The notes under the pieces were generated by a model that was not told the DNA's origin, did no database searches, and was given only the letters and a program-made list of their open reading frames with translations. Below, piece by piece: positions 1 through 64,000 of a DNA stretch of 64,000 bases. The position numbers and the translations under genes are program-made. Location: positions 56,606,001-56,670,000 of the forward strand of contig CM060733.1 of NCBI GenBank assembly GCA_030704615.1. Reading direction: 5' to 3'. Source of the stretch: Takakia lepidozioides. Lineage: Eukaryota > Plantae > Bryophyta. Each line of letters starts with the position of its first letter. Position 1 is the stretch's first letter.

Positions 1-98
1 ATTTTCTCCTCTCCGTGACTTCACAAATTCTACATAAGGCTCACAATCTAGCCTATTCATGAATACATAACTTTGTGTTTGTCTGTTTGTTTTACAAT

Positions 99-18240: not shown

Positions 18241-18850
18241 CTTCCACTCTGCCTGGACAGTACTTACTTAACTAGACAGATTAGGAAAGAAAATGACACT
18301 GAATGCAATACTAGATTTTTCATACAGCAACGAGTATGAATCACGAAGATAACCACTTGTGAAGCTTCCAACAAGCACTTCAATGAATGGAACCAGGAGC
18401 AAATCTCAGTGGAAAATCTAGTTTTGAAGATTTGTTTGTTAATGATCTGCCCCACATTTCTTCTGACTATTGGCTGTTCCTCAAATTCAAATAGTGGATC
18501 TATTCCGTTGACCTAATGCAAAGAGAGCTTGTGTGCTTGAGAAACAATAACTTCCACTCTGCCTGGACAGTACTTGGACAGATTAGGAAGAAAATGACAC
18601 TGAATGCAATACTAAATTTTTCATACAGCAACAAGTATGAATCCCGAAGATAACTACTTGTGAAGCTTCCAACAAGCACTTCAATGAATGGAACCAGGAT
18701 TAAAACTCAGTGAAAAATCTAGTTTTGAAATTTTTTTGTTAATGATCTTCCCCACATTTCTTCCGACTATTGGCTATTCCTCAAATTCAGATAGTGTATC
18801 TATTGCGTTGACCAAATGCCAAGAGAGTTTGTGTGCATAAGAAATAATCA
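18241..18850. repeat. Tandem duplication of a ~300-310 bp unit (18241-18550, 18551-18850)
   Basis: Both units start CTTCCACTCTGCCTGGACAGTACTT and align along their length with scattered substitutions and indels. Confidence 0.9.
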
Positions 18851-19620
18851 CACTTGGACAATTCCAAGTTTGTACATGTCCTCTCGTGCATTGCAATCAT
18901 TGTTTCAATATAACATGAAAGTGAAATGATAGATGCTCCATTCATATACTGAACCAAAAAACGATGAATGCCCAAATGCTGACAAATCCAACAATTGAGG
19001 GAAAAAAATGATACTTAGTGGAAATGAGAAAATTTACATTCAGATACAATATTGATACTGTAAGCACTCCCACCATACCTCTGTAGTCCCCTATTTTGCC
19101 TCAGGCATGCAGCAAATCTCGTCCCCAACATATTCATATGATCATTAGGACTGTTCAGCATTGCTTCTGTCACTGTGATGTAGAAAACTTTTGTGAAGTG
19201 CATTAGTCCTCAACACAGCAGGAACATTTTTGATACTACACATTGTGACGGGTATCCACCACCTTGTAGCAATCCACTACTTACCTCTCCAGCACTGTCT
19301 TAGCGTACTAGCTGTGTGAGCTGCATCAGCACCAAGGTCAAAACATAAGATCTCAGAAACAACCACCTCGAAATTGGAAGAAGCCTCACAAACTACAAAG
19401 CAAGCTTTCCCTGCGGCAGAAATTCAGGAGAAGCAGCTCTTATAACACTCCATCCTCTTGACATGGGTTCACTCACATCAACCATACAAAGAGATGTATT
19501 GTGCACAAAAATGTGACTACACAGACAGCCACAAGAAGGGACAATGTCCTCCTCTATCATGTAAGGAGAAGGAGCAGCATATTGAGTAGTCTGAGAATAC
19601 CTTGAACAATGACACCAGTA

Positions 19621-25902: not shown

Positions 25903-27513
25903 TCAAGAGTTACACCGGCGCCAAGCATACACCGACGTCGGTGGCGAATCAGATGAAAGACCTGAATTACATGGAATTACAGAATTGGGAGGAAATGCAG
26001 AATCAGGAGACTGATAAGTGGCTGTGGACTCTTGAGTGCTCTCCAAACTAGAGCAAGATTTGGGGCTGCAAAATCCCAGTTTGAGGTCGAGCTCCAGCAT
26101 GCTAGTCCCTCGCTCTTTGGGAATGAATTTCGATGGACATGGAGCTAGCTGCAAGTTCCCATCTGGAATAGGCCCAGACAAGAAATCGGATGTACTCCTG
26201 TCCACAGTGGCGCGTGAAACCATAGCACAAGTTTCTTTGATTGACCCCTTCTGCACTGCCTGACTCTGTGACACAGTGCGTGGTTGTAAACCTGTAATAC
26301 CATCAATACTCTGGGACGTTGGGCACTTCTGGGAAGCTAGCCTAGTGACCCGGGAACGGGTGCTTTCGCCAGGAGTTGAAAGCTCTAGCTGCGGGGGAGC
26401 GTTCGGCAATGGCGAAGAGCAAGAGGTAGGCAGTAAGAAGTTGGTGCGTGCCTTAGCCCCACGCAGCCTACGGGCTGCGGCATCATATGCCCGAGCAGCA
26501 TCCTCGGCTGTGTCAAAGGTGCCGAGCCAATGCCTGCATCTGCCTATACGATCTCGAATTTCAGCGGACCATCTACCCCATGGCCTCTTCCTAACACCCC
26601 TATACACTCGCCCGCTGGTCCCCGCACCATCGCCGCTGCTGGCTCTATCGGAAGCATTGCTGCTCAGGGTCTCCGGAACCAGTCTGCAGTTATCCAAGGA
26701 TGGTGCGAACAGCTCTGAAGAAGGCCTGCTTTCAGCAGCTTGCGGGTTAGATCTGAAGCTTTGTTGTGCGGATCTCACGAAGTTATCCGGGGAGGGTCTA
26801 AAATTTTCCAATGTGGATCTGAAGCTGTCGGATGTGAAGTCAGAGTAAGCTGCTGCTTCTGAAGATGGAGGAGGACCCAAGTTATGAATGGAGTTGAATG
26901 TCAGCATCGGAGGAGAATGATGCAACACAGTCGGGCCAGTCTGCCAAGACGGCGAGAGACGCTCTAGATCTGCCGAAACATTCATGGCGGAAGCCGCCGG
27001 GGGCACACACACTTGCGAGCTTCCAAACAGAACACGCTGACCGACGACCGCAGCAATGCCATCCAAGTCATGCAAACTCGTCTCCTCCGCACTGCTCTGA
27101 GCAAACCTGTGATCGAACAAGAGAGACAGCGGACGGTCCCCCTCCATCTTCACCAATTCAGCATCTCCATATCCGTGCAGCGGCACGCCCAGACAAGAAT
27201 TCTCACCCCAGCTGCTCATGAATTCAGCAGGCGGCTGTGTGCCGCCCAGTCGATGCTGAGGAGTGCTCTCCTCAGCAAGCGACCGAATGGAAGGGTGGCA
27301 AGATGACATACAGTGAGTGCAAAGCGAGTGCAGGGGGATGGCATCCCCTGAGCATCGCATGCACGCCCCCGCCTGGTACCGATCACCAGCCCCGCTCTCC
27401 TGCACCTTCTCCTTCTTCACATTCACAACAGTCCCGGGCATGGTGTCCCTCCACTTCCGCTTGGGGGGGTATATGGCGCTGCCCAACAGCATGTCGTGCA
27501 GCGCCATGGACAC
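25903..27513 (-). CDS. AP2/ERF transcription factor (ERF084-like AP2 domain) with a C-terminal EAR-like motif; single exon
   Basis: 536-aa ORF with [56 protein letters not shown], and LELDLKL (LxLxL) near the C-terminus. Confidence 0.93.
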
Positions 27514-29427
27514 AAGCTCAAGCCTTGAGATGGAGCGGCTGCAGATTTGCTCTCTTACTTACTACTTACACTCTCCAAACCAGCACACGGACGACGACAG
27601 TCCTGCTGCCCAGACTCAACTGAGAGACGTGAAAGATCATATTGCCTGCCATGTGCGCATTTTAAATGCGAGCAAGGTGTTCAAGACCTAGACTTCAACT
27701 TGCCTCTGCCTCCATGCAGGACTAGAGAGAGCAGTAGCTGAGAGCTCGTAGAGGGTAGAGCTATGGCTGCCAAGGCTGCAGGCCAGCATAACGGAGAGTG
27801 CGAGAGGACGCGAGAGAAAGGGGGCTCTAGAATTTTCCGGTAGTGGGCCTAATCCCGCGCCAGGAGGGGAGCGCATTTGCGTGTCGTAGGGCTGCCGTTC
27901 ACCGGGTGAGTAATATCAGGTTTCTACCTTCTTGACTTTCAACCCTGGATTAACGCTTTCATCATTCCGCGCCTGTACATTCATCACCTGCAGGACACTC
28001 TGTGCTCATCAAGTAATCAGTCTAGAGTTCGACCTCCACTGGCGGTGTCCATCATTATTCCAAAAGGAATTTTGGGCCCATTTCTTTTTTTTTCTTGTTT
28101 GAAAACAGGGGATGGAGGCCCCGGACATGCTGACGTTTCTCCATATTAGCGGGCCGGGCAGTGCCAAAGTCTGAGAATTTTTATTTCCAATATTGTTTTA
28201 TAAAAAAAACATTTTTTCATCAAATCCCAGTTGAGACGAGTATGGATCTTATACAGTGACATTGAGGAGGGCATCAAATCTTTTCTTTTAGGCACATGTG
28301 TTTATTTGGAAAGTAGACAAGCTTTGGAATCATCAATTGTTCGTGAATGGCGATGGTAAGTGTTCAACGGCGTTGATGCTTTTGATGATTACTATGCCTT
28401 ATAGTTTTACAAAAACCTTGCGGATGCCATCAAGCTTTAGATACATCAAAAAAACGGCGCCATTGGCCCTAGCTAAGAAAAACATGCCGATGAGCAACAT
28501 GAAAGGCATTGGAAAAAGAAAAGATCTAGACGAGATGGCGCAAATTGCCAAGTCCAATCTAGAGAGAACCCTCCAAGTAAGAATATTGACAGAAACTATG
28601 AGGTTACAAGCGCTTTCATAGTTCAAATGTGCTTTTTTAATAGCACAGATATTACAGTAAAGCTAGTTGATGTTGAAGCCATGGAGAATCTCCAAAATCA
28701 CTAAGAATGCACTAAAGATCACATTTGTTATGATTCAACATTATGGTATAACTTGAACAAATGCCTCACCACCGTATGCGAAATTTCAGGCTTTATTGAA
28801 AATATTATTTTTATTTAATTTCTCATCCATTTCTTTGAAAGGGATACACCTGGCAATGTTTACAATTGAATAAAATCTTTCATTTATTAAAATGATCTTT
28901 TTTTCCCAATAAAAGACAATAAAAATATATATATCAAGGTCATAAGTTGCATCCCATGATGTACTTGTAAACATCAACTTGTTGAAAATATAAGCAAAAT
29001 TTTAAAATATACAAGAAAACACTACACATTCCTTGTCACTTGGGCTACCACAAAGATTGTGCAAATAAATAAACATATTCAACAATGAAAATACATCACT
29101 AGACTACATATATTACATTTTCTTTCTCTTTGAGTTGAAATTGAATGTCAATTAGAGTTCAACAACCTCATAACAACATTATCAAGTAAATTCACAAGAA
29201 GATTCAAATAATGGTAACCGATAAATTGGTAAAATTTTGGGTATCATTTATTTTTTAGTTTGTTGTTAGTTCCAAACACATGCAATGCAAGAGCATAAAA
29301 AATTGGGGCTGATTTCCCTTCGTTAATATCTGCTCGTGTACGAGGGCATTATCAAAAAAAATAATGCACAGTGCATTACACACTTTGTAAAATGCACACC
29401 TCCGACAAATCATCCGATTTCTTTACG

Positions 29428-44974: not shown

Positions 44975-47900
44975 TCAAAGGATGCGGTCAGACTGTGATG
45001 GCAACCTTTTGAAAAAATTTGAAGGCACAAAAGGTAGTGGGTCGCGGAACCGCGGGTGTCGCAACACATACACTCCCAGAAGCACCGCTACAACTTGAAA
45101 TGGAGTGACATACAGAACCACCGCTGCTACAAGACAGAAGGTAATAAACACAGCAGTTGCTCTGGCACAATCAAACAACAAGGCAACATCAGCAGTTGTC
45201 CACTAGGCTAGGATGCTCTTATCAGGTAATGAAAGGACAGATACATTCTAGTGCAACAAGATTTGTTCGAAGAACACTCATCATTGCAAGCAGAAGCCAA
45301 AACCTTTTAAACGGATGTTGAACAAATAAATGGTAATACCTTGGGTCACGCCAACTGAGGAGCGCTTGAAGTCTTTCTCCCATCGTGGCAACATCACCAA
45401 GTGCATTTTGAATTCTTCCAGCAACACCCCGGAGCCTTTCATACCTATACTTCAAAACCTGCAGTTGGCATCAATTTGTGTCAAACTCGGTTACATCACG
45501 GTTGCCAAAGAGCAACATTTCAGCACCGACTATAAATTGACACTGCAAGAATTAGAAAAAGATTGACAAAAGTGGTCATGGTGTTATACCTCTTGAGCCC
45601 TATTGGCTGGAACTACATTAAACTCCTCCTCCAGCTCATCCAGATCACCGATCTGCTCCCCTTGCGAAAGCTTGGCGTCCATGAAAGGAGGGGTCCGAGG
45701 CCGGAACCGATAGTTCCAGGCTCCAATAAGGAACATGTATAGAAAGACAGTTGGCAGCAAAAGCTCAGGGTAAAAAACAAGAATCAAAAAAAGAATATGG
45801 ACAAGCACAGTCGTGACAGGGCTTTTCCAGCTGCAAATCTCTAAGAACCAATTCATAACCGCCACAATTCCACTCAGCAAACCCTGCATCAACAAGTCCA
45901 TAAGTCAGGGTGTGGATTTGGGGACCATGGTGTTCTGGAAAAAGCTCAAAAACCAACAATGGTGGGGTTAGAGAAAGATATATTTATTTAGAATTACCAC
46001 CTGTGAACTATTACTGGAATGATGGATGTTTGCTATGAACAATGAATGTTCCAATGAAAGAATGGATCACAAGAAGGAACACTTGACAAGCTATCAATTA
46101 CATCTAAAAGCAAGAAGCACTAACAGCCCGACATATGTAAGAGGTGGAATGTGTCCTATACTGACAGTATATAAACCATTCATCGCCAAAATCAAGACTC
46201 AGACAGACCACATACCATCATCCGATAGTAATTGGCTTTGCTTCTCCGCATACTCCATCTCTCTGCCTCTGTATCTAACATAAACTGTACAACCTCTTGA
46301 CGCAAGGGAGGCTCAGACTGCATGAGCCGTAGGGCCACTATGTTCATTGCGGCAACCCGCAAAGCTTCCAGCTGCTTTGGATCCAGTGGGTAAAAGTAAT
46401 GCATTCGGGGTAGTTGTGGTTGCAGGTATGCATGCATCAAGTTCATCGTAGAGGCACAGGACAGCCGTACAGCAAGCTCTATCTCACCCATCTTCTTCAC
46501 ACCCTGCGGTGTAACAACCAGCAACGGGTATGCATTGGTATACACCCGATCACTTTCCAGTGTTGAAAGGCGAATGCGAACTTTGCCAATGGGAAGATCT
46601 TTTGCAGCATTTGCTTTGTCCAGTAGAGGGTGATGAGTATGCCTGTAACACAATAAGCAGTTTTACAAACCAAATTGAGCACATTCAAAAATATGCAAGA
46701 GTTGCAAATTGCAATGTGCCAACTGCTGCAACGAATTTCCCCAGAAAAAAACTACAAGTCTACATCTGTACAAAAGTTCTACATGTTACTAGTACAATGT
46801 TAGGAAAGCAATCATTTGAGACAACTACATCTCCCAAATCAATATGGCAAATGCAATTTTATTTAGTATACAGACATCGAAGCTGTGAAACAACAGCATA
46901 GAGATTTGAAAAAAGTAGAGACATCAGACCTATTGTCAAACACACCCACTGTGAGGACAGTACATGGGTCATAGACCTCCCAAGTATACTGCTCATTCCA
47001 TCGAGGGTTGAAACTTTCAAAAATTGTCCGCGTCCGCACCCACTTTGGCCCATACTTTGACACACAATATGCGTCAGTACTTCCCCGATTGTCCTTGGTG
47101 GTTTTCATGGGAAGTAAATTGTTGGCTCCATGAATGCCCAGTTCCAACACGCCTAGTGAAGGTCTCCAGAGCTGCTTTGCTGTGGGACGTGTGCAGCTGC
47201 TATAATTGGAGGACTCATCAGTGACATGGTATCCACCATCAAAGCTCAGGCGCAAGTGAATGCGCCCTCGAAAAACGCCCTTGTCACCACCCTCCCTATC
47301 CAGCACATACCACCTGACAGCAGGCCCCAACCATTGTGAGACAATTGAATATCCTTCTGAGACTAGAAAGCAAGCTACTAAGACTAGAACAAATAGTCCA
47401 CATTCAAGTGTGCCATATTTAATAGAACAAGAGAGAGTTGTAACAATACGAAGGGAGTCAAATCCGTCACCTAGATGCCACAGGGCGACCATCGATTCTG
47501 CGTTCAACACTACTGAGAGGTATCCTCACTTGTCCGAGAATCTCCTCCTGCACAACATGAGCAAGACAATCAACTGCCTCAACAGAACCATTCTCTGACA
47601 TTGAAGGATGCTAAAGTGTAACATTGAGAATGAAGAGGTCATTGCAGTCCACTTACTTTGTTCCCAACCCTGTCTTCAACAAGAAGATGGAGCAATTCAT
47701 CGAAAGGCTCTGCTGCAACGAACATCAGGTCTTCGTTCCAGAACGGGCTGGCAGTCTTGACTGAAGCATTTCTTGATCGTAATGTCTGATATGGGCCTAC
47801 ATGTGCCTTCACATACTGCATACGGATCATAAAAACGCCAATTAAGGCACACAATGAGACAAAATTGGTTTCAGGCTAGCTCATACATAAAAATAACAAG

Positions 47901-50900
47901 ATAAAATCCAAACAACATTGGTTCAGAATGAGGGAAAAGGACAAAAGAGCACCGGTTCTGGCAAGCGGCCCCCTTTGTCATGAGAGATGAGGTCTTGGGC
48001 TTCGATCACATTCACTCGCAGATACCAGAGCTTGGGGGACAAATAGACCTTCGATCGAAAATGGGCATGACCACCTGTGTCAGACTGCCAGGCTTCAGGG
48101 AAGGCCTCATCTGCCTGTGTCCCCCACCATATTGCAAGCATAATTTCACCTGGAGTACAAACCATTGCAAAATTAGTAGTTGTACACCTATTTTGGAGCC
48201 CATTTACAAATGAAAAGCAGCAAAACAGAGTTGAGTGAGATTGTACCAGAGAGATCTAAGACATACAATTACTAGAGAGAATTGCTCCACAAGCACTATA
48301 CCAATCTTGAGAAAGACCTCAAGGATCCAGTCAGACTTTGTCAATTTAGGTTACGGTAAAACATTGCAAAGTTACTGTTGGTATAACTATTTAGATTATG
48401 GGCAGGTAGTACCTTGAACTCTACCCTTCCCTGCTTTGGCCTCAAGTTTGTACCATTGTGGGGCCAGTGGACTTTCAGGAGGCTTGCGTTGTGGAATCTC
48501 TGCCAAGTCAAACATGAGACCTCCAAGAAAATCGTCCTTCGAGATCTTGTCCTACACAACACCATACACTGCAACCTCTGAAGGCTTGTGGACAGATGAC
48601 AGTCACCAAAAATCACTCTTCCATTAACTAAACCAGTAAGGTAGTAAACATCCACTTTCTTCAACCATTGAAGAACACAATACAAACAGAACGACTGAAA
48701 CATAACAAACGTACACTCACACTCAGCACAAGCAGTGTGAAGCTCAATAAATTGGTTGCCATCTTACGAAAATGCAGAAGACAAATTCCAAACCTGGTTT
48801 GGAACTGCTGGGTTCAAAAAAAAGTCTGAACATTTACAGGGTAAAAGCAAATGCTTGAATGGGAAATATTAGTCATAGAAGACGTACCGCATCCCACACA
48901 GTCAATTCAAGAGTTCCACCTTGAATTTTGTCCTTTCCAACTGCAAAGACCTGATTCCACTCTGGATTCAGATCATGTTTCATAATCCTGCTCTCCGTCT
49001 TGACATCTCCCACTGTCAACTTTACATACTGGGGTCATCACATGTACAACAAACAACCAACCTCAAATCAATGTCTAGCATTGTCAAGATATCCCAGAAA
49101 ACCCCACACTAAGTAACACCTTACCTAGCTGCATGCAAAATATGTTGAGACGGAACATGTATATACCACGATACTATGACAAACTATGTGGTCTCCCAAG
49201 CACTACCGTAAGTGACTTAGTGCAAAAGTCCTCCACAATCCTTGAAAAGCGGCCTATCAAGAGATCTTTTCCAAATCTAACTTGAGATTGAATCATAGCA
49301 GAACTGAAATACTGCAATGACTTGAAGAGGTTAGTTGCGCAAAGATTGGAAGAGAGAGTAGATAACAGAATCTAAAGATACTTACAGGATCGCTCCTGCC
49401 ATCCATATCTTTACCAGCAAGACCACGTGCCTTCACCACACGAACAAACAAATAAGTCATCTGTTCAACAAGGTCATAGTGGGTTTTATAATCAACTGCC
49501 TTCCCCAACTCGGGAGTAGTTTCCTTAATGGTAAAATCCGCTTCAGGAACTGTTAGGAGGCTAGGTCTGGGTTCTGGCTGCTTGTCTGCCTTAGCTTCCT
49601 GCTTTGGCTTTGGATCTTCCTTCTTTTCTTCTTTCTTTGGTAAATCCAGAATATACCAGATCTTCAGCCTGCACAAAACATACAATGTTCCATGACTCAC
49701 AGGCATCACCATAACCGTATAACAAATAACCCTAGGTGGTTTGGAGGTAATGATTTCTCCCAAAACTCAGCTGCACTGTAAGCTTATTAGTTACTAACCC
49801 AGATAACATGTGTCTATGTCATATGTGAAGAGATGACCTACACGACCTGAAACATTGGAAGACCCAGGTCTGGGAGTTGAGCTGAGGGACACAGCCTGGT
49901 CAGTCAGCTCTGCAAACCTGAACAATACGACTACATTGCATCCTAGAGTATCTTCCTCTTTATTGAGACCTTACAGACAGCACTGGATCCCATGCATTGA
50001 CAATTCTATTATAGCATCAAAAACTCCCGAGAGACTCCCAGGAGCTGTGGTGCGGGGCTCTAAATTCATTGACAAATTCTTGGCTTGCATCACTAAGAAT
50101 CACCATACCCAAATTAAAAACTAGATCTCATTGGAATCCCCTACCTGACAAACATCCTCAACAAGTATCAGCATTGATTGGTTTCAACTTAACTGAGTGG
50201 CCGAAGGACGGAACTCCCCACAATTATGGTGACAAATTTGAAAAGAATGGTCCGTTGGCAGAAGTTCAGTGTGGGAGGATTGGATGTGGGACACATACCA
50301 CACACTCACCCTAGTCGTCCCTTGATGTGGGAAAAGAGACCTCGCTTTTGCAGTGGATACCATCTCACAGCCTCTGGTTTATTCGTAATACTATTGATGG
50401 GAATGACATTCTTTCCTAAGAAACTGCTTCGTCTGCCGGTGCCAGTCTTCCTCTCATTCTGGATGTTGATCTCCAGGTCTCCAGGCATTGAAGGACAACC
50501 AATGAGAAACTCAAACTGCACATGCGAACGCCGTGTGAGACCGGACTGCCTAATGAACAGAGATGTTTGCAACTTTACTATGCACTTATACGGTTATTCT
50601 TCCGCTTAAGATTGAGAAACACGATCTCCTGGATCACTGAAGCTGTATAGACAACACATGGCCTCCGAAATACTATGTTTAGTGAATACTGACCAAGAAA
50701 CATTATCCGACAGCTACAATGTCTGTCTCACTCCACAATTTTATTGAAGAATTCAAACAAAACTGAGCCAACAGCAGACACAAAGGCTTCCGGTAACAGA
50801 AAACTACTGGTCGCAGAGATCCTAGGGGACGATAACAATTACGATTTGCAAGAGCTCGTGGTTTCTCTCTAACGCCACAGTACATTATCATATTGGTTTG

Positions 50901-51516: not shown

Positions 51517-52679
51517 AGCTGGAAAAGCTTCCTGTACACAGAAACGCCCGATCCACTCCCTCACAAACCTCTCTTACCACCAGCTTCCTCCTCCGCTTTC
51601 CATCTAAGACCTTCTAGTGTGATCAACTGTGCGATCAACACAACACTGCACTGCAAATTCAATCCCCTCTCTCTCTCCCTCTCTCTCCCCTCGCTGCGTG
51701 TCTGCGCAGAGAGTGTCAGCGTCGATTCATCACTAGGTACCATCTTCTTGCCCAGCTACAGCCATACGTATACGGTTTCGGGATACGAATACGCGCACCC
51801 GATACAGGCACCGAGAGGGGGTCGTATGTATCGTAGAACGGTAAGTAGGAGATGAGCGTACGTACGGGGGCATAAAGAGGCGGCGAATACGAGCAGTAAA
51901 TACAACGGGCAAATGCGCAGGTGTCGGACCGTTAAGAGCGCCGCCGCCGCTTTAAGTTGCCCGATTCCATAATCCGCTCCACCCTGCCGCTCACCGACTT
52001 ACATACCCGCTGCGCACCCGCGCCTTCGGTGGGCCCGCACCTCTCTCGCCCCCGCGGCTTCGGCGTACCCGTGCAGTCCGGGCCGCATGCCACCCGTCCC
52101 GCCCCGAGATATGCCACGCGGGTTGTACTTTTTGGCGTGTTTTATAAAACCAATTAATTCGGTTCCAGCTGTATAATAATGAATGAATCAGACCCTTAAA
52201 GGCTGGCACGGACCGTCGAAAACAGTTTTTGTATTATCATTATTATTGTTATTATTTTGTAATCTGCGGATTTCGGACACCGTAAACGATCAAATGTTTT
52301 CGTGTCGGTATGATGGTCGACACGATTCCATCGATCCTTTTGGCTTGTGGATGGATGGATGGATGGGTCACGATACTAGGACACTCAAACCTGCAGCATT
52401 CGTCCATGTATCACTTCTTCCGAACGTTGGATCGGAAACAATTCAAGATCTGATGCCCTTGGAAGCTAACTCCCCCACTGAAACAGTACGGAAGTGATGA
52501 AGTCTGTTACATGTGGCAAAAAGATGGAAGGGTGAGGTGGCCCAGTAATTTCTTGGCCATCCCCACACTGCCACAATCATCTTTTTCTTTGTTTGTTTTT
52601 TTTTTTACAGAAAATAGCCCGAGTCCTGCATGCAAGGAAAGCCAGAACCGTAGTCAAGAAGAAACGTCTATATCCCTAA

Positions 52680-55390
52680 AGAGATGTGTGCCTCCGCATA
52701 CAATCACTTCTCTAAACTCTTCCAGGCAGATTCAAAGGATATTCTCCACCCCGATAAACTTAGAGATTGCCTCCAATGTATTCCCCAAACTCTTCAGCCT
52801 CAGAACACCTCCGAATTAGAAGATGACCTGACCTCGCAAGAGCTAGAGAGAGCGCTTAAAGCCCTGAACAACAACAAAGCGCCGGGGATAGATGGAATGA
52901 GAGTGGAATTTTACAAGGCATTGTGGTCAACCATCTCCACTAACTTCTGTGACATGGCCAATGCCATCAAAACAAGGGTTTCATGCCTATCTCTTTGACT
53001 CATGGGATTATTAAGGCTTTTGATAAAGTCGACTAGTCCTTCCTGCTGGCAGTCCTACAGAAAGCAGGCCTCCCTCCCTATTTTTGCAAATGGGTGCACA
53101 TTCTCTTGCAAAGAGCGCCCACACAGTCCACCATAACGGATACCTTTCAAAGCCTTTTCAGCTTCAAAGATCGGTCACACAGGGATGCCCGCTTGCGCCA
53201 TTCATCTTCTTGTTTGTTGGCTATATGCTTCAAAGCAATCCCCTGGTGAAAGGTTTAAAACTGCAGAACCCCAGAACTGGCCTTTGGGATGAGGTGAAAG
53301 ATTCAATGTTCGTGGACGATACCTTTTTGTTGCTTCAGGAAGACCACCCCTCTCTTGTTGTAGCTCAGAATACCCTAGCTCACTTCTGTGATATCTCAAG
53401 GTTCAAGGTCAACTGGACAAAATCTAAAGCCCTGCTTCTTGGAGACCTATCTAAATCCACCATAGGATCCTCCCCTACTTGGGGGCAACACCTTGGTCTA
53501 ACATGGCTTAGAGATGGTGAGACCACCACCTTGCTAGGGCATACTTTTGGAATCAACCTGAGAGAGGAGCAACGTATGGGCCCCACTATTCAAAAACTGA
53601 AACGTCAGCTTGCTTACTGGGGGTCTTGCCACCTCTCTATTACGGGTAGAGCGTTGGTGGCAAACCAAGTTCTACTTGCTAGGGTTTGGTACTTTGCCTC
53701 CACCTGGGGACCGGAGTCTAAAATTTTCAAAGAAATCAAGAGACTGATCCGTAACTTCATCGGGGGCTCCGCATCCCCTTCTCAGAACAGAAGACCTCAA
53801 GTATCCTGGGCCCAGATCTGCCTCCCTAAAAAGATTGGAGGGCTAGGAGTTTTAGACCCAAAGACTCAAGTTTAGGCGCTTCTTGGGAAATGGATACCCA
53901 GATATCTAGGGCCCGAAGGAGGCTGGTGGAAGCTCATGGTAGCAAACACTATCTACTCCTCCTCCCCAATGCAACGGGTCCTATGGCCAGAATCCAACAG
54001 ATTGATTGTCCAAGGATTCAATCACCAATCACCGGGCTCTCATCTTTGGTCCTCCATCTGGACAGTCCTGGAATTGCCTAAGATCTTTTTTGGTAAAAAA
54101 AGGAGCCATCTTCTTTCTATGAAACCTTGAGACAACACCTGTTCCTTAATGACCCTAGCCCATCCGTGGCTGACCGGGGTTCTGCAAAAAGATGGGCTGC
54201 ATAGGAAACTAGAGGCTTCTCCACAATTAAACACCTTTGGGACAGCTCCCCTCAATCCCTAAGAGAGGCTCTGGGTGCAAATCGTCTCCATTCGGGGATA
54301 CCCCTCATCATCCAATCAATCCCTGATACTTGGAAACTTATACTCAAGAAGTGTCACGGACCCCACAGACCACACCAATGGGTTCTTCTACAAAGTCCAT
54401 CTTTACAAGTCATCTATGTTTCTGAGGTCTCTCCATCTACGATCTCTGGATATAGATTTCATGCTCATGAGCTTTCTGGCAGCCTCTCCCTTACTACTCA
54501 CTTCCAAATCAGGAAGTCATCCATGCTCACATATGCCACTGGTCTTCCCCGGAAAAAAACTTCAATCCATCTGTCCCAGTGGGCATTCCCCTGCTTACCT
54601 GGCTCAGAAATGAATCATTCACTCTGGTCGGAAACTCAGGCCTTACATCTTTGCAATTAGACCCTGCCGAGTGGCAGTGGACAATCAATGGCGAGATTCA
54701 TCCTCTTTTCTCATACTCAGCTCGGCGGGGTTACAGAGCCTAACTTCAAGCCAGACCTCTCACCACAAAATGGTAGGGCAGGTTGGAGTCATGAGAATGT
54801 CAGCGAGGAAAATTGGAAGAGCATCTGGTCAGTAGTTTGGGAGAAGAAAAAATCTGCCAAGATAAGTGCATTTCTGTGGCAGTTAGTCAACAGAGTCCTC
54901 AAGGCGGGCCAATACATCAATTTAAACTTCAATGTTGCTACCCCATGCGGATGTTGTGCTGACCAAGCAGTAGAATCCCTGGAGCATTGTCACCGAAGGC
55001 CATCTGGCTCTTGGTCCAAGCATTCTATAGAAACTGGGAGCCCATCAACCTTAGTTCCTTGAAAATCCTCCTCAACTACAGTAAACAAGGAAAGCAAAAA
55101 CTCTGGACTGCCCGGTTTTTGAAGTGCTAAGATACTCAGTTCTCTGGAACATATCGCGCTGCAGCGGATGACCTGATATGCTTTCAGTTGATCTCCGATC
55201 TTTCAAACTCTGGGGATGCTGAAGAGCAGGCCTTTGTGTCCCTCCCAGTAGGGGGGGATGCTCTCTTTCCAAATACAGGTGAGATCATAAGTGCAGCGAC
55301 AAATGATTCCGAGGTGGGCCCAAGTTGTCTGGAAGACATAGGGTAGTGCAGGCTGGCGCTCAGGTTTCCTGGCAGCCTCTGCACACAAAG
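52680..55390 (+). mobile_element. 5'-truncated, degenerate L1/Tx1-type LINE (RT plus zf-RVT region)
   Basis: ELERALKALNNNKAPGIDG.RVEFYK; KAFDKVD; SVTQGCPLAPFIF; FVDDT; SITGRALVANQVL; LPKKIGGLGV; KISAFLWQL...CGCC....ESLEHC. Several stops and frameshifts. Confidence 0.9.
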
Positions 55391-55479
55391 AAGCCCTTTT
55401 TTTTTTAGCTGCTACTTTGAGATCAAAGAACACAAGAGTCAAAATAGCAGTTGCGGATGTATTTTCCTTGTTGTAGATC

Positions 55480-55714
55480 CATGCACATCGTCCTTACTAG
55501 AAACTGCCTTGCTTGACATGTATACCAATTGTGGGAACATTGAGGAGGCCCGTCAAGTGTTTGACAAGATAGCCCAACGTAGTGTGGTCTCATGGAATGC
55601 AATAATTTCAGGATATGCCTAGCATGGGTATGGTGTGGAGATCTACGAGCAAATATACAGGAAAGGATGACACCCAATCAAGTTATATTTGTTTGTGTTC
55701 TGAAGGCTTGCGCC
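55480..55714 (+). pseudogene. PLS-type pentatricopeptide repeat (PPR) gene fragment, cut by an LTR insertion
   Basis: ETALLDMYTNCGNIEEARQVFDKIAQRSVVSWNAIISGYA*HG...(frameshift)...MTPNQVIFVCVLKACA, ending abruptly at TGTCAC. Confidence 0.85.
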
Positions 55715-56294
55715 TGTCACGGACATAGCCCAGAAGAACTTACCAGGAGTAAATACCAGAAGTTATCAAGTTACAAGTTACCATGATTTACCAAGTTACC
55801 GGGAGTTTACCAAATTACCAAGAGTAACTTGGAAAACTACTCAGGAAGCTTCATTTGAAGAAAACTTCTCCATCAAGATATCTATTTTGTTTAATGAAGC
55901 TTCTCCATCAAGAAACCTTTGTTTAATCTTGGAAACTTCTCCAGCAAGAAACCTCCATAGGGGAAGCTTCTTGGGGAAGCTTCTTAGTAGCCAATATATA
56001 CAGGAGGCGAGACTGGACACTCTTCAGTCTCGCCAACACCAGTTCAAGCTACTTTTGTTTCCAGTTCCTAGTACTCCAGTCCAGTTCCCAGTACTCTAGC
56101 CCAGTTTCCAGTATCTGGCACTCTAATCCAGTTTCCAGCATTCCAGTATTCAAGTCGTGTTCCAATATCTTGTACTCTTGTACATTGTTATAAACATCGT
56201 CTTGATTCCTATTTACTCATCGTGCATTCGGCCACGCCGACCTTGACTTCTTGTCTAACATTGTATGTGTTCAGGCATGTTCTCGTCCTTGACA
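55715..56294 (+). mobile_element. 5' LTR of a Tf1/Tcn1-like (self-priming) Ty3/Gypsy element
   Basis: TGTCA...TGACA termini, TATA-like ATATATA at ~55994, and internal AGTTACC and TCCAGT short repeats. The PBS position TTGGCGAGACT (56297-56307) is complementary to LTR 56026-56036. Confidence 0.85.
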
Positions 56295-56332
56295 GTTTGG
56301 CGAGACTAAAGTTTGTTCTTTAGTTAGTTAAG

Positions 56333-56492
56333 ATGGAAGGCACATTTGCGGAAATGGTCACCACATTACAGAGTCTTCAGCTCCAGATGCAAGAACTTCG
56401 TACATCTACCGCCCAATTGCAAGCTGATCAGTCTCTAGATCTTGGCAACGCTCTCCACAATTTGCAACAACAAATTTCAAAGTTAAAGGAGT
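56333..56492 (+). pseudogene. N-terminus of gag of the self-priming LTR element, interrupted by the nested insertion
   Basis: ATG 39 bp after the LTR opens the coiled-coil-like MEGTFAEMVTTLQSLQLQMQELRTSTAQLQADQSLDLGNALHNLQQQISKLKE, which is broken at 56493 by another LTR end. Confidence 0.65.
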
Positions 56493-57009
56493 TGTCGTGC
56501 GCATACATATCGCTACACAACTACATCGCTGTCCAAACCACACCACACATATATGCACAATAAAGTAGTCTGCCACAATGATAAACAAGCATAGAGACAC
56601 TGTTGACACAAAACATATGAAATCCATCGCTATCACTCTTTAAATAGAAGTCGAGCCAGGGCACCCCAAGCTATGGGGACTCCACCCCACAACAACCTAC
56701 ACTCCCATCATGACACTCAGATCTAAACGCATGCAGGAGCTCGGTCGCGCAGGCTCAACTCGAGAAAGATGAGCCGCGCGACTGCCGCTCTCGTGAAGAT
56801 AAGACGGACCAGGTGTCAAACTAAACTTGACACCTGATTTAACACTTGACCTAAATCCAAGTGTTAAATACAAATAACTAGTTTTATTCTAGCTGTTTTC
56901 ACACTGTGCTTATTTAACTTGACAGCTGTCGTGCGCATACATATCGCTACACATACATCACTGTCCAAACCACACCACACATATATGCACAATAAAGTAG
57001 TCTGCCACA
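56493..57009 (-). repeat. 3' LTR (517 bp) of the DNMT-bearing element, with an ~83-85 bp direct repeat at both of its own ends
   Basis: 56493-56577 and 56927-57009 are near-identical (TGTCGTGCGCATAC...GTAGTCTGCCACA). TATTTAAA lies on the minus strand at ~56639-56646. TG...CA ends. Confidence 0.8.
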
Positions 57010-57269
57010 ATCGCCCCCCTAGCTGGTGGATAGGTCCCTCTACCTCCAGATAGCTACAAGATGTAATAGCCACAACCGTACTAAGTCCTCTATCACTGTC
57101 CCTATTGTACTCAAACTCTATAGACCAAGAGGCCGGGTACAAGAGTAGCCCCATCGTTAGTCGCCATCTTGCAATCTGTGAACTTGAGCCAGGACCTCGT
57201 GTGTTCAAGGTCTCCTAGTAGCTGGGCCTTGCGTTTCTTGTTAGTCTTCCATGGTTGTATCCACTCCCA

Positions 57270-57411
57270 CTATCCAATGCAATGTGGACATAACCAATCC
57301 CCATCCGGAACCATCTCAAGAGGGGTGTCAAGCATCCATATGCCAACCTCTAGAGCATCGATCGCACACCAGCATGGTGGCTGCCCCTTTAGCAGACCCA
57401 CACAACATGCA
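57270..57411 (-). CDS. PHD finger at the integrase C-terminus (one frameshift)
   Basis: CMLCGSAKGAATMLVCDRCSRGWHM-(fs)-CLTP.LEMVPDGDWLCPHCIG* is a C4HC3 PHD pattern with the conserved W before the last Cys pair. Confidence 0.88.
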
Positions 57412-58683
57412 CCTCAAACCTGCAGATACCACCACCAGGTTTGGGTCAATCCTGCCATCAACATTCGGAAGGTGACATGGCGCACAATTACGCACATGGT
57501 CCTTCCAAGTTATGCCATCCCGACCCTCCAAGACCAAGACGCCTGAGGGCAAGACCTCTCGAACCCTCAAAATAACACGTCCTGCAGTCACATCCAGGGT
57601 CGTAGGAGCAGTCTGCTGCAGATAGACATAGTCACCAGGTTGAATCTCCGAACCCCAGGACGATAGCCCCCACCACGTATGTAGCATGCAACGTATCACG
57701 GTGTTGTGCAATGGCAAGGTTCTCGAAAGCCATGGGCATGACTCTCTTGAACAACTCTGCACGCTGCTCACATGCACGTGCCCACACGTCCGGATCGTCA
57801 AGGTTAAGAACTGTAGCAGCTTCTCTGCGAATGGATGTAGGCAAATCCGGCTCTCGGCCAAAGAGAAGAAAGTATGGTGAGAAGGAGGCAAGTGATGCTT
57901 GCTTGCTGAACCTGTAGCCCATGGCTAACCAGGGTAACTGAAGGTCCCAATCTCCTAGGTGTCCCTTCTGCAAGCCATACTTGCGCAAACCCCTCTTTAC
58001 TGTCTGAACAACTCTCTGCCAAGCCATCGGCTTCAGGATGATCCCGAGAAGTGGTGCGGTGGTCTATCAAGGCCTTGTCACACAAAGCCTGAAACTCCCC
58101 CAAGAACTCTCTCCCTTGGTCCGTGAGTACCTCAGCTGGAGCACCGAATCGGCTAAGCACACAATCCAGGAATGCATACGCAGCTCCCTCACTAGCCTTA
58201 TCAGGCAATGGAACCAATTCAATCCACTTGGAGAAGTGCTCCACCATCACCAACACGTACTTGTTGTGGCGCATGGTCAGTGGCAACGGCCCTGCGAAGT
58301 CAAGACTCCACCTGTAGCCCAATCCCATGATCGGAAGAGGGTGCAATTGTGGAGTAGGGGCGTTGAATGAAGCACGCACCCTGTCACACACCATGCACCT
58401 AGCCACAAATTGTTGCACCTGTGTGCATACCACGCCACCAATACTGCCCCTGCAGTAGACTATGAGTGCGTCGCACCCCAAAATGCCCCAACTCCTCATG
58501 GGCATGCCGCACTAACCGTGCCCGCTGTGTTGGGTGAGGCACAATCCTCACTCGACCATCCTCCCACACTCGGAGCAGGTGTGTCCCCTCCCACCTGAAC
58601 CTCTTGGCTCGTTGTAGGATCCGATCCCTCTCCTTGGCAGTCATAGTGGCTGCCGTGTCTCCACTGCGGAGGTAGTCCAACAC
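57412..58683 (-). CDS. Retroviral-type integrase (HHCC, DDE core, C-terminal SH3-like region), frameshifted
   Basis: HAHEELGHFG...CMVC; WSLDFAGPLP; VLTDQGREF; DGLAE/RVVQTVK; FSPYFLLFGREP; GDYVYL. Confidence 0.93.
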
Positions 58684-58899: not shown

Positions 58900-60247
58900 T
58901 GCGACTCAACCCATCTGCATTTCGATTGACCAAACCCGGTCGATGCACCACCTGAAAGTCATACTCTTGAAGGATGAGTGCCCACCGTGCAAGCTTCCCC
59001 GTAAGCTTGTCTGACTCCATCAACCACTTGAGTGGTTGGTGATCCGTGACAAGGGTGAAGAGATTGCCGTATAATAGCACCTGAAGTGTGCCACGGCCCA
59101 CACTGCAGCTAAGCATTCTCCCTCATATGAGCTATACTTAGACTCTGCAGCATTGTTCGAGCGGCGCTAGCATAAGCCACTACGAACTCTCTTCCCTCAT
59201 CATCCACCTGTGTGAGCACCGCTCCAAGCCCCAGCATGCTCCAATCTGTATGCAGCTGAAAAGGACGCCCCCTGATAGGTCGTCTCAAGATGGGCGCCGA
59301 GGTCAACCTCGCCTTGAGCTCTTGAAAAGCTTGTTCTTGCTCATCTTCCCACTGCCACTCCTGGTCCACCTTGGTCAGCTTGGTTAGAGCCTTTGCAATG
59401 GCACTAAATCCCTTAACAAACCGTCTGTAATAGTTTGCTAACCCCATGAAAGCTCGAACTCGGCTCACATCCGTGGGGCGTGGAACCTGTGCAATGGACT
59501 CTACCTTAGTCTGCTGTACCCCCAATCCTCCAGGATATATCATGTGACCCAGATACTCAATCTGGTTGTGGAAAAACTTGCACATCCAGGTGTCGCTCAT
59601 GCTCTCATCCCCGTAGCACTAAAGATGATGATGTCATCTATGTAGCACCGAGCAAACTCTCTGCTAGAATCCTGTCCATGACTCTTTGAAACTCAGCGGA
59701 GCGTTTTTAAGCCCAAATGGTAAGAACCGCCACTGGTATAGGCAATCCTTCCCGTGCTCATTGATCCCCCAGAATGCCGTCTTTTGCTTATCCGCCTCCT
59801 TGATCGGCAACTGGTGATATCCGGATCGTAAATCCAACGTGCTAAAGACCTTGGAATGCCCAATGGCATCAAAGATCTCCTCTGGTGTTGGCATGGCATA
59901 CCTATCGGACTTGGTCTGACGATTTACAGGCCGGTAATCACCGCACATACGTCTCTCCGTCCAATTGCCATAGACATCCTTCTTAGCTGGCATCACTGTG
60001 GCTGAAGCATACTCTCACCAGAGAGCTCCACCAAACCTGCCCAGAGATCTTGAGTCCTCATCTGAATCAAAGACCTCTCCATGTCACTGTATCTATAGGG
60101 TCTCCGAAAGATTGGCGTGTCAGTGGCCAACTCAATACGGATCTCTTGACCCTTCAGTGCTCCCAAGTCCTTCAAACTGAAGGCAAAGCAATTCCTATAA
60201 GCCCTCAGGAACCGCCGTATACGTCGTCTCTCTCCCTCCGGTGACAA
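58900..60247 (-). CDS. Reverse transcriptase and RNase H, frameshifted
   Basis: RT: RRMCGDYRPVN, FSTLDLRSGYHQL, PFGLKNAP, YIDDIIIFS (~59620-59645), IEYLGH, FMGLANYYRRFV. RNase H: FQLHTDWSMLGLGAVLTQ, TDHQPLKWL, NADGLSR. Confidence 0.95.
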
Positions 60248-60591
60248 TGGTCCAATGTCAGGCTCCCAATTGTCCTCCGTAACTGCAACCTTAAGTCCAG
60301 TGGGCTTAGAGGTAGAGGACGCGTCCCGTGGTTGCTATGCTGCAACCTCTTGAGCAGTACCCCCTTCCTGCTCAGTCAATGACAAGGCCTCATCCTGCCC
60401 CATCATCTCATCATTGAGAACCTCCTCATCCCGAGAAGAATCCCCAACCTCATCCATCACAGCTGCCTTCGCTGCCAACTCCCTCTGAACCTCGAGCACC
60501 TCCCACATGTGCCATGGATGTCTACACCTCGTGGTCCTCACCGGCTCGCCCCCACTCGCTGCCTGTACCGTCTCGGTAGGCAGAGAGACCG

Positions 60592-61860
60592 TCAAGGGAA
60601 GTGCACTCCGCACTCTACGTTGCTCAGCCATAGCAAGCTGACAATCCAGGTCAAGCAATTGAGATCCATTGCTTGCCCCAACACCTGACGACGTGATGCC
60701 TCAGAAAGAGAAGGCACCGCCGTGGTCCCAGTGGAAAACCCCATAGCCCGCTCTCGCTCGTCGGCATTAGGCTCCACTAACTGCTGCAACTGAGCATCCC
60801 ACAGGAGGCCAGGTCCACCATCCCGAAAAGCATGGGATCCTGGGAAGCTGAGCAGTGTAGGTAATGCTGCTCGTGGTTGACCCACCCTGTTGACCACTGC
60901 CAAAGGCAAACGGTCATCGTGTCTCACACGTTGAGACTGCCTTCCTGTGTCCAAAATGCCATCCACGGTGAGGTGTGCTGGCCGCTGCACCCCATCAAAT
61001 GCACGCTTGAGCAGTGCGGGTGGCATCAAGTTAGTCCGTGGACGATGAGCCCGTGACCCCACTGCAGCTGCATCCAGCAACACTGCTGACCCAAGCCACG
61101 ACCGGACTTGATGCACACTGGCCATCACCCTGGCCCGAGAATCACCCATCAGTGGTACATTCTCCAAGATGTATGCTGGAGATACAGCTTGATGAAGCTG
61201 CAAGCAGCGCAAAATCCGCACCATCTCCCAAAACAGACCCGTCCTCGAGTCTCGCAATCCATTGCCATGCCCGGCTGATGAATGCCCTTGGCAGGGCCAA
61301 CCTGCCACTATCAGATCAATGAGCCAACCTGCTCCAAAATCTTGCGCCCCCAACAAGGAAATGTCTGCTGGCAAGGCTTGTTGGTATCCACGAACTGCAG
61401 ACACAGGCAACAAGTCAGGGTACTGCTGTACCAACTGAGCCACATGGCGCAGTGAGACGCGTCGTGCAGTCTCATCCCTCTCCACATACAGGTAACGCCT
61501 TACCCGCACACCTGCCTGTAGCACAGCAGCCAATCCGGTGCTGATCCCGCCAAACAAGTCCAGAAGGCAAATGCCTTCATCCGGCCGCTGCCACACAAGA
61601 GGTGTGGTGTCCAATGGCGACAACTGAGGTGGCCCTGGTGCAATCACCGCACTCTCCTCCTCTCCTGACGGTACAAAAGCTTCTTCCCAAGCTTGTTGCA
61701 CCCGTCCATCAGCAGCTTGCTGCAAATCCTTGCTCGTACCCCACAACGGAGTGTGAGCAACCATGGCAGGCAACTCCGCCGTACCATGCATGTCATCCTG
61801 CTCTGCTGGAGGTGGCACATCCTCTGCATGGGCATTGCTTCCAGCAACTCTCCAGGCCAA
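60592..61860 (-). CDS. C5-cytosine DNA methyltransferase domain embedded in pol (DNMT3/DRM-like motif style)
   Basis: Motifs in canonical order: I LLDLFGGISTG, II YVERD, IV IDLIVAGWPCQGHS (catalytic PC), VI YILENV, VIII AHRPR-TNL, IX ERERAMGF, X LGQAMD. Confidence 0.93.
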   Translation of the reverse strand: MAWRVAGSNAHAEDVPPPAEQDDMHGTAELPAMVAHTPLWGTSKDLQQAADGRVQQAWEEAFVPSGEEESAVIAPGPPQLSPLDTTPLVWQRPDEGICLLDLFGGISTGLAAVLQAGVRVRRYLYVERDETARRVSLRHVAQLVQQYPDLLPVSAVRGYQQALPADISLLGAQDFGAGWLIDLIVAGWPCQGHSSAGHGNGLRDSRTGLFWEMVRILRCLQLHQAVSPAYILENVPLMGDSRARVMASVHQVRSWLGSAVLLDAAAVGSRAHRPRTNLMPPALLKRAFDGVQRPAHLTVDGILDTGRQSQRVRHDDRLPLAVVNRVGQPRAALPTLLSFPGSHAFRDGGPGLLWDAQLQQLVEPNADERERAMGFSTGTTAVPSLSEASRRQVLGQAMDLNCLTWIVSLLWLSNVECGVHFP

Positions 61861-61912: not shown

Positions 61913-62329
61913 CTAATACCCCCAATGAATGTCACAGGAGCTGTGCACGGCGACCATCCCCTGACTGCCATCCAGGCCTGTAGGATGCTGACTCCTCCCA
62001 GAAATCCAGGTGAAGCCCATGGGGTATAACACTGCCCCACCAACGAGGACATCGTAAGAGACCGCGTCTGTCACAATGGCCTTGGCTCGCATCACTGAGC
62101 CATCTACAGGATGATCCGGCTGCAGTCTAATAGCCAACTGATGCCGTGTCATGCCGCGAGCCTGCTCTGATCCTCCCAGAGATGTCTGTATCTGGAAAGG
62201 ACAAGGCTCCATATCCGCCTCCATGAGGCCCAAACCTGCAATAGCAGCTCTGCCCAACATCAGTGGCTGAGCTCCTGAGTCCAACAAGACCCGCAGTGGC
62301 CGGTACTTCTTGCCTGCCGGTCCACTCAA
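61913..62329 (-). CDS. Retropepsin-type aspartic protease
   Basis: RVLLDSGAQPLMLG (DSG active site) and YDVLVG downstream. Confidence 0.85.
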   Translation of the reverse strand: MSGPAGKKYRPLRVLLDSGAQPLMLGRAAIAGLGLMEADMEPCPFQIQTSLGGSEQARGMTRHQLAIRLQPDHPVDGSVMRAKAIVTDAVSYDVLVGGAVLYPMGFTWISGRSQHPTGLDGSQGMVAVHSSCDIHWGY

Positions 62330-62881
62330 AGTGAAAATGCCTCCTGGTTGTCTAACAAGACAACTCCAGGTGTCACCATGGCGCGCTCAATGCTGGCCTA
62401 GCTGGCAGCTCCGTCAACCTGGCAGCTGCAACTTGCCATGGCGCAGCCGTGGCAGTCTTGACCCTCAAATCCGAGGATCCCTCTGCCACTACACCTTCAC
62501 TAACTCCGCAGAAGATGAAGTGACCTCCCCACTCTCACAGAGTGTTGCTGCTAGTCTGAACACTGCAGCTGGTCTCAGGCGTCGCAATCATTGTTGCCGA
62601 GAACAGTGGGCCTGACACAGAGGTGGCTGCCCCCAATAACACACCGGCCGCACTAGCCTTGGCAGCAGGAGTCAATGCTGCACGTGTAGCTCTCCCCAAT
62701 GGCATAGTAACCTCCGCCTCGGTAACAGTCGGGCGAGAACTAGGTGCCATGGATGGCGTCGACACAGTCTCCGCCAATGTGAATGACTGAGGAAGCCTTG
62801 CCTGACGGCTTGCCTCCCCACGCTGTGGATCCAATTCCACCTCTGCACCTCGTGGCTCAGGAACTCGTGCTGCTCCTCGAG

Positions 62882-64000
62882 TCACGCTGCAGCAAACTCC
62901 ACCTGCTCTAGTGGTAGTGCTGCTCCGCACATAAATCCCATGCCTCCCATATCTCCTCCCTCAGGAGCAGGAGGTGGACCATCCCGCCTGGGAGCCGGTA
63001 CCGCCTGAGCTATAGCCATGGCAGCGAGCCTCTGCTCTAGCTGCTGAAGCCGGTTGGCCATGCCTTGATCAACGCCCTGACCTCCGCGTCCTTGGCCATG
63101 TTGAGCTTGCCCTTGGCCTGCACCTCGTGCCCGACCACCTCGTCCTCCTGGGCTGGTCCACTCGCCCCGGCCACCATTGTTCCCTTGGAACTGGCCTGGG
63201 CGCAACTCAGGATGCAAGTCATAACACTGGGCATCTCCATGCCCATACTTGCCACAATGCCCACACTGCAAACTGTGCAGGCTGTGCTTGTGCCGGCCTT
63301 CTGCCACTCTCTGGCAATCTCTCTTGACATGGGGTCCTCCACATGTCCAACATATCACCCCTGGTTGCTGTTGGCCTGCAAAAGATGCCACGGGCCTCTG
63401 CACCTGAGGTCCCCTGTAAGCTCCATGGAACTTGGGCTGGGCAACCTTGCCCCCCTGACCACGCTGTTGGGCAGTCCCTTGTGCTTGTGGGCTGACAGCT
63501 GTGCCCCGTACAGGCATGTCCTTGCCAAATCCAATTGTAACAACTCGCTCCTCCACCATGTTGAGCTCAATCCGCTCAGCCAGCAGAAACACATCTGCTA
63601 ATGTGGGTTGGGCTGCTTGTAACAGGGTTGCATCTCGCACCCTTCTCTTGAGCTCCTTGTCCAAATTCCATACCAAAACTGGATTGCCTGAGCTTCAGTA
63701 ACCCCTTGGGTCACACTTATCAAGCGCCTCATACGAGTGTACGCCTCTCGCAGGCTCTCACTGGGTTTGCGCTGGAAGTCTTGCAAACTTCGCAGCTTCT
63801 CTGTCCGTACACCTTGGTAGTTCCTCCGCAACTCCTGGAAGACTCCACCACCGGGTTGAATCTAGGCACATGTGTTGTAGTTGTGGCAGGAGGAGTAGTA
63901 GCACCTTTTGAACTGGTACCACCTGCAGAAGTACCAGCACTACCTGCTCCACTACTAGTGCTGGCAGTGGGAGCTATTGGTACTGATGCAGCTACTGGTC
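62882..64000 (-). CDS. gag (retrotransposon gag domain plus two zinc knuckles), frameshifted, 5' incomplete
   Basis: LRSLQDFQRKPSESLREAYTRMRRL; CWTCGGPHVKRDC and CGHCGKYGHGDAQC; RGG-rich tail. Confidence 0.85.

Follow-up and report, generated by a model that had tools for sequence, protein, structure and literature searches.

The element described here is a copy of a high-copy Ty3/Gypsy-type retrotransposon family in which a C5-cytosine DNA methyltransferase (DNMT) is a regular part. It lies on the minus strand of a 64,000-nucleotide stretch of Takakia lepidozioides DNA (contig CM060733.1), referred to below as the window. Its domains follow each other in the order gag, protease (PR), DNMT, reverse transcriptase (RT), RNase H (RH), integrase (IN), and PHD finger; the coding order Gag-PR-RT-RH-IN with a DDE integrase is that of Ty3/Gypsy elements. 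The gag region runs to position 64000, so that the 5' end of the element lies beyond the window edge. The following features were assigned.

63002..64000, minus strand: gag, broken, with a zinc-knuckle-like CCHC stretch (weak match to PF03732, E 6.8e-4)
61913..62386, minus strand: aspartic protease with a DSG motif (PF13975/PF13650 below cut-off; colinear with P0122/P0124)
60634..61590, minus strand: DNMT3-like C5-cytosine methyltransferase core, motifs I-X unpermuted (profile match, alignment, fold of the relative L082)
60338..60661, minus strand: C-terminal tail of the Gag-PR-DNMT frame, frame-shifted here (matches the tails of P0016, 76%, and P0124)
60329..60337, minus strand: in-frame TAG, then CAA CCA, a readthrough context of the CAR-YYA type (kept in relatives)
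59620..60334, minus strand: linker and reverse transcriptase, broken (PF00078, E 6e-12; RT from ~60295)
58900..59618, minus strand: RT connection and RNase H, broken (PF17919, PF17917)
57668..58540, minus strand: integrase, H2C2 zinc finger and rve core, broken (PF17921, PF00665)
57280..57420, minus strand: C-terminal PHD finger, broken (PF00628, weak here; E 4e-10 in the intact L082)
57012..57020, minus strand: polypurine tract (PPT; from sequence, relatives having a PPT at the same position)
56927..57011, minus strand: repeat A, first copy, ending in GACA (repeat search)
56921..56930, minus strand: internal end-to-end joint GACA-GC-TGTC, likely an integrase attachment site (sequence comparison with relatives)
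56580..56924, minus strand: repeat B, starting with TGTCA (B also forms the element's 5' end in relatives)
56493..56579, minus strand: repeat A, second copy, the 3' end of the element (GACA; 95.6% identical to the first A)

A preliminary description of this DNA had treated the DNMT as part of the retrotransposon polyprotein, and this holds: the domain is integral to a Ty3/Gypsy-type element and is present across the family. The RT follows within 1.5 kb of the DNMT in 54 of 82 sequences (81 loci and the window). In the sequencing runs X1, X3, and X6 (these and X9 come from the same organism as the window), contig depth over the DNMT is within the range seen over gag, RT, and integrase, summed contig depth not being equivalent to copy number. 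The same description had placed the domain inside pol, running into the RT across a single frameshift, and here it has to be revised. A Gag-PR-DNMT frame, with the DNMT as its C-terminal domain, ends before the RT. The frame change, near 60634, is specific to the window copy, other contigs differing at this point (29 each in runs X1 and X3, 4 in X6, and the only contig of X9); it is damage in this copy, not a family trait. Beyond it stands an in-frame TAG (60337-60335) that is kept in relatives.

The window copy is dead. It has at least 12 frame breaks, in the form of one- or two-base indels relative to other copies, and has lost three residues (LWW in relatives) directly after motif VIII. Its alignment to intact relatives spreads over many frames, and PR and DNMT are split by two frame changes, at ~62012-62024 and ~61836-61839. 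A second, isolated integrase fragment of the same family is found at 6415-6501 and is 92% identical to 57716-57792.

Two other assignments were considered. A DIRS/PAT element with a tyrosine recombinase is ruled out by the rve integrase and by the 4-bp target duplications of relatives. The C-terminal chromodomain of chromoviruses is absent from the intact second frame (ORF2) of L082, in which Pfam searches find a PHD finger instead.

The 3' flank of the element (55716-56492) is high-depth repetitive DNA with a TGTCAC end at ~55716, and the element may have inserted into another LTR-like repeat. On the plus strand, a PPR fragment (55347-55622) lies between this repeat and a decayed LINE-type RT with a zf-RVT domain (52650-55100), whose CpG observed/expected ratio of 0.29 is below that of the DNMT element. 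Elsewhere, the window contains three host genes: a long-exon PLATZ factor gene (16017-16991), an AP2/ERF factor gene (25903-27558) with an LELDLKLG motif, which we take to be EAR-like, and a C2-domain (MCTP-like) gene (46192-49766). The PLATZ, AP2, C2, and PPR domains point to a streptophyte host, probably a land plant. There are also a 300-bp tandem duplication (18238-18851), a pair of direct repeats (80%) separated by 1.4 kb (91-227 with 1488-1622), and a 49-bp inverted pair 2.4 kb apart (3318-3366 with 5751-5799), all of which are possible old transposons.

The methyltransferase domain, its relatives, and its history

The stop-to-stop minus-strand frame 61860-60592 (422 aa) matches the DNMT family PF00145 with an E value of 1.4e-12 (48 bits, cut-off 22), which bears out the earlier assignment of a DNMT core. 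Motifs I (LFGGISTG), IV (PCQ), VI (ENV), VIII (HRPR), IX, and X are present, as had been noted, and stand in unpermuted order, and the catalytic PC, ENV, and RxR are retained. The domain lies on the same strand as, and between, PR (62386-61913) and RT (~60295), and it is colinear with intronless relatives, in agreement with the reported lack of introns.

The solved structures that best match the window DNMT are DNMT3A chains (6.8e-7). A profile of 81 relatives retrieves DNMT3A at 7.9e-28, followed by DRM-type structures (6.5e-14) and HhaI (1.2e-9). The predicted model of the unbroken L082 domain (pLDDT 97) aligns with DNMT3B over 273 residues (Z 29.2, rmsd 2.6 Å), with lower Z scores for HhaI (25.0) and DNMT1 (22.7). 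By profile and predicted fold, then, the DNMT of the element is closest to DNMT3A/B, and its motifs are unpermuted, unlike those of DRM. The catalytic Cys is conserved in 78 of the 81 rows, the Glu in 79, and the two Arg residues in 79 and 75. The dN/dS values called for in the preliminary description, 0.09 to 0.26 in 7 between-family pairs with dS near saturation (3 further pairs being saturated), indicate that the DNMT is under purifying selection between families. Within one family, the ratio is 0.48 to 0.76 (4 pairs), as expected from decay after insertion. For the RT, used as a control, the only computed pair was saturated.

Named relatives come from Marchantia polymorpha, M. paleacea, Calypogeia, Riccia, and three Sphagnum species. 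The protein search returned 243 relatives of similar length and 70 longer ones, and a HMMER scan found 229 clusters with E < 1e-30. The Marchantia protein Mp_4g09160, to residues 142-417 of which the window gag was aligned by tblastn, is an unbroken Gag-PR-DNMT frame. Some bryophyte gene models annotated as "DNA (cytosine-5)-methyltransferase" are transposon frames and can inflate DNMT counts. A search of genome contigs gave two loci, one Streptomyces DNMT and L082. The latter (1-9285) is a retrotransposon of eukaryotic type, without breaks, that is filed in a public cyanobacterial assembly, presumably as a eukaryotic contaminant. The ORF2 cluster of a close L082 relative has 226 members in metagenomes, and the L082 family is therefore probably young. 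Viral contigs contain only distant phage-type DNMTs, 28 to 58% identical over short parts.

The preliminary description knew of no account of such elements in land plants, and none was found in a search of the open-access literature; the same search gave no account of the in-frame stop or the ends of such a DNMT element. Marchantia and Sphagnum gave no match in the three supplements searched, including the 96-genome table of PMC5890265. A DNMT-bearing retrotransposon was previously known from Klebsormidium; the family described here differs from it in host range, the conserved stop, and copy number.

Two layouts are found among the 197 proteins of at least 450 aa: the DNMT lies between RNase H and integrase in 97 and after PR or before RT in 66, and has no recognizable neighbour in 34. 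They correspond to two groups in a FastTree of the RT-RH region (107 rows: 106 picked from 153 after thinning, plus L082). The streptophyte group (37 rows, support 88) includes Marchantia, Calypogeia, Closterium, Klebsormidium, and a Coleochaete transcript and has the DNMT before the RT. The chlorophyte group (63 rows, support 100) includes Scenedesmus and Haematococcus and has it between RNase H and integrase. In the DNMT tree (138 rows), the two groups separate in the same way, with a single change for each label (supports 85 and 91); the outgroup of this tree comprises nine prokaryotic (phage or bacterial) rows and one dinoflagellate row, with no host DNMT3 or DRM. Both trees are FastTree only, with mostly unnamed rows and a sampling biased by the queries and seeded from one side. 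The K. nitens RTs P0388 and P0415 fall in the 37-row group (support 88), but neither record contains a DNMT, and the searches retrieved no DNMT of K. nitens. In the RT tree, P0457, P0459, and P0461 lie immediately outside the DNMT clade; they are RT-RH-PHD-IN elements that carry Dam (PF05869) and match the DAM-LTRs described in a preprint (bioRxiv 10.64898/2026.05.21.726589).

The simplest reading of these trees would be one ancient capture and one domain move: there are fair grounds to place the DNMT in the clade before the chlorophyte-streptophyte split, with a change of position in one branch. The capture is not specific to land plants: it falls in a clade of the green lineage with Klebsormidium, Closterium, Coleochaete, and chlorophyte elements. 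Horizontal transfer of the clade between algae and bryophytes, in place of inheritance from a green-plant ancestor, is possible but doubtful. It would account for a DNMT identity of 66 to 73% among liverworts, Sphagnum, and the window, which is high for liverworts and mosses that diverged >400 My ago, for the lack of any named vascular-plant DNMT among the 190 matches listed, and for the imperfect sorting of families by host in the DNMT tree. However, the deepest split in both trees separates chlorophytes from streptophytes wherever hosts are named, and between-family dS is saturated. With these results, what was presented as an acquisition in the K. nitens lineage (KnitGypsy-Dnmt3; de Mendoza et al. 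2018, PMC5890265) becomes a clade across chlorophytes, charophytes, and bryophytes. The K. nitens element was later cited as streptophyte (PMC12344493; bioRxiv 10.64898/2026.05.21.726589).

The in-frame stop and the role of the methyltransferase

Most long Gag-PR-DNMT relatives end ~95 to 190 residues past motif X. In the unbroken L082, a frame of 1162 aa is followed by TAG CAA TCA and then, in the same frame, by 1047 aa of RT-RH-IN-PHD. The window junction (60337-60329) reads TAG CAA CCA, with no variant in these nine bases among the 40 of 65 rows listed from four runs; L002 has TAG CAA CCA and L022 has TAG TAG CCA. Family 1, which groups with a Sphagnum protein in the DNMT tree, has a stop in all 29 distinct junctions (19 TAG, 10 TAA), followed by CAA CCC, one base off CAR-YYA. 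The L066/L067 row (CAG) was dropped from this count, as its context differs and the loci belong to family 2. The junction pattern matched only stop, CAG, or CAA codons, and L034 and L027 gave no match.

In plants, UAG followed by CAR YYA drives readthrough of the tobacco mosaic virus (TMV) type (PMC2754532). RT-RH-IN-PHD is likely to be produced by such leaky readthrough of the UAG, with the DNMT outnumbering RT and integrase; readthrough would place the DNMT at Gag stoichiometry. Translation of ORF2 from a spliced RNA or by reinitiation, the stop context being incidental, seems unlikely. In family 1, an ATG follows 7 bases after the stop, so that reinitiation is possible there; plant LTR elements with two ORFs, of which Gag-PR is the first, are known (PMC6317226), and ORF2 of the Coleochaete transcript is annotated as a complete ORF. 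Against this, the window, L002, and L082 have no ATG at that place, and in five families with otherwise unalike linkers, ORF2 directly follows the stop without a change of frame, with CAA as the next codon in four of them. The stop is not general: the sister family 2 (L051, L056-L081; 11 loci aligned) lacks it, with open frames in L069, L075, and L076, and several algal-type proteins, including Closterium-type ones, fuse DNMT and RT in one frame. Gag-level dosage is therefore not required.

The DNMT is probably produced in amounts like those of the coat protein, enters the particle, and methylates the cDNA of the element ahead of integration. Slightly favored is a sequence of events in which the DNMT is released by the protease within the particle and methylates nascent cDNA there, so that new insertions would arrive pre-marked. 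That the enzyme acts instead in the nucleus, in trans on integrated copies or competing elements, and so damps or times the activity of the family, is improbable, a shade more so than the splicing or reinitiation of ORF2. A Gag-side position would yield far more enzyme than one cDNA needs, and slowed retrotransposition is one of the roles discussed for such elements (PMC5890265). On the other side, the DNMT is fused in the polyprotein, in either position, in 163 of the 197 long proteins, whereas a free gene would serve a role in trans equally well, and the CpG observed/expected ratio of the element (0.49) is not below that of host DNA (0.56), a weak test. The target of the enzyme is not visible in the dinucleotide and trinucleotide ratios of the element, and the modification of the host epigenome suggested in the preliminary description finds no support here.

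The three conditions under which the DNMT would be a one-off host capture, a nested insertion, or an assembly artefact of the heavily broken window copy can be dismissed together, as the same domain order is found in dozens of loci and in named genomes, no repeats flank the DNMT, and independent contigs (X5 record 20, X9; run X5 is only guessed to be RNA and has no bearing on expression) span the DNMT-RT join.

Since 2018, what retrotransposon DNMTs do has been an open question, in part because their hosts Symbiodinium and Klebsormidium are hard to work with. A further part of the reason is the inactivity of the Klebsormidium domain in yeast, where KnitGypsy-Dnmt3 gave no methylation, a result that its authors call inconclusive (PMC5890265). 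Marchantia polymorpha is a genetic model in which a CG-methylation mutant releases transposons (bioRxiv 10.1101/363937), and its unbroken Mp_4g09160 frame makes the question directly testable.

Element ends, priming, and integration

The element has the layout B-coding-A-nn-B-A, with the termini TGTCA...GACA; in the window, the 3' end runs PPT, A, GC, B, A. The 5' end of relatives is B alone: 21 distinct insertions (27 loci; the partial B copies L031 and L062 were left out) start with TGTCA, or TCTCA in one case, and A precedes the 5' B in none of the 21. Eight distinct 3' ends, including that of the window, are A-nn-B-A. Six others have a single A after the PPT; these fit a 1-LTR circle or A-A recombination alike and were not used. 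Both ends are available for 7 insertions; the 4-bp target duplication is perfect in 4 of these, contains one mismatch in 2, and is lacking in 1. These duplications and the TG...CA ends of relatives are Ty3/Gypsy-like; the same LTR at both ends, as in canonical LTR termini, is not found, the left end being B and the right end A.

The internal joint GACA-nn-TGTC, also found in L005, L025, L030, L045, L066, L078, and L082, consists of the right and left ends of the element back to back, and the B/A junction joins the end on the primer-binding-site (PBS) side to that on the PPT side. The 18 bases that follow the 5' B are able to pair with a site within B. This site ends at B 177-180 in 7 family-1 loci, with 0 of 300 shuffles as good in five loci and 3 and 40 in the other two; none of 300 was as good for L082. 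Of the 6 family-2 loci, 4 showed no significant pairing, as did 1 of the 7 family-1 loci. Where a TATA box is present (three families), the pairing site is ~25 to 30 nt below it. Reverse transcription is thus very likely to self-prime from the RNA's own 5' end, and the site fits self-priming of the Tf1 type (PMC6317226). In L030 (10500-10535) and L082 (7229-7260), the predicted primer in B makes up the 3' arm of a hairpin, the 5' arm being a copy of the primer-binding site; the primer would thereby be hidden only in the 3' copy of B. An aberrant end is seen in L019 (13162-13450, same as L023), where B is present only from position 179 and is followed by 9 bases of the primer site and then by A; it could reflect an internal deletion or the joining of A to a strong-stop-like piece.

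Taken together, the PPT and the primer site define A-nn-B as the repeat unit. On balance, the simplest route is suggested, in which A-nn-B is the true repeat, the two ends of the cDNA become linked head to tail, and the integrase cuts GACA-nn-TGTC, dropping nn. If a symmetric 2-LTR circle were cut at one or the other of two equal sites, half of the 5' ends should read B-A-nn-B; there are none among the 21, so the proposed route needs an unexplained bias. The permuted ends point to an unusual integration route, and they probably explain why surveys based on LTR pairs missed the clade.

The full combination can be put forward only tentatively from the sequences: an integrase retrotransposon clade as old as green plants, with an active DNMT3 throughout, in which bryophyte readthrough would load the enzyme at capsid stoichiometry to pre-methylate the cDNA, and end-joined, self-primed cDNA would integrate through an internal attachment site. 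If true, it would amount to a replication route intermediate between those of LTR elements and DIRS elements, one that standard LTR finders do not see.

Comparison with known systems

As described in PMC5890265, KnitGypsy-Dnmt3 likewise has an unpermuted Dnmt3-type domain in an intronless Gypsy polyprotein, with purifying selection in both, and its repeats are laid out in the same DIRS/PAT-like split manner, A-coding-B-A-B in its authors' lettering (legend to Fig. 4c). In contrast to the window family with its stop, its DNMT, RT, and RNase H share one ORF; the window family also differs in its land-plant hosts and high copy number. In the parts of PMC5890265 consulted, a PHD finger, a self-priming site, an internal attachment site, and 4-bp duplications go unmentioned. 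The window family very probably works like KnitGypsy-Dnmt3 and belongs to its clade.

Retrotransposon-borne C5 methyltransferases are also found in SymbioDIRS-Dnmt3, which methylates CG de novo in yeast, and SymbioLINE-Dnmt (both PMC5890265), as well as in the EpiLTRs, whose DNMTs are sister to DNMT4 (bioRxiv 10.64898/2026.05.21.726589). According to these sources, the three belong to another retrotransposon class or DNMT clade and are set apart by a tyrosine recombinase, a LINE endonuclease, or a chromodomain plus Dam, respectively.

Single features recur in other systems. Tf1/Sushi-Tcn1 chromoviruses, which are present in mosses, similarly lack a tRNA primer site and are predicted to self-prime (PMC6317226); the window family differs from them in the PHD finger instead of the chromodomain, the non-canonical ends, and the DNMT. 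The window stop context fits the CAR-YYA of the TMV-type signal exactly (PMC2754532). Tca2 likewise has a single in-frame stop between its structural and enzymatic frames, although in Tca2-type elements it follows gag (PMC2194720), whereas in the window it follows protease and DNMT. Finally, the end-to-end joint of foamy virus is also palindromic and is cut by a DDE integrase at the 2-LTR circle junction (PMC1180852); in the window family, by contrast, the joint stays inside the repeat permanently, and integrated copies have a permuted form.
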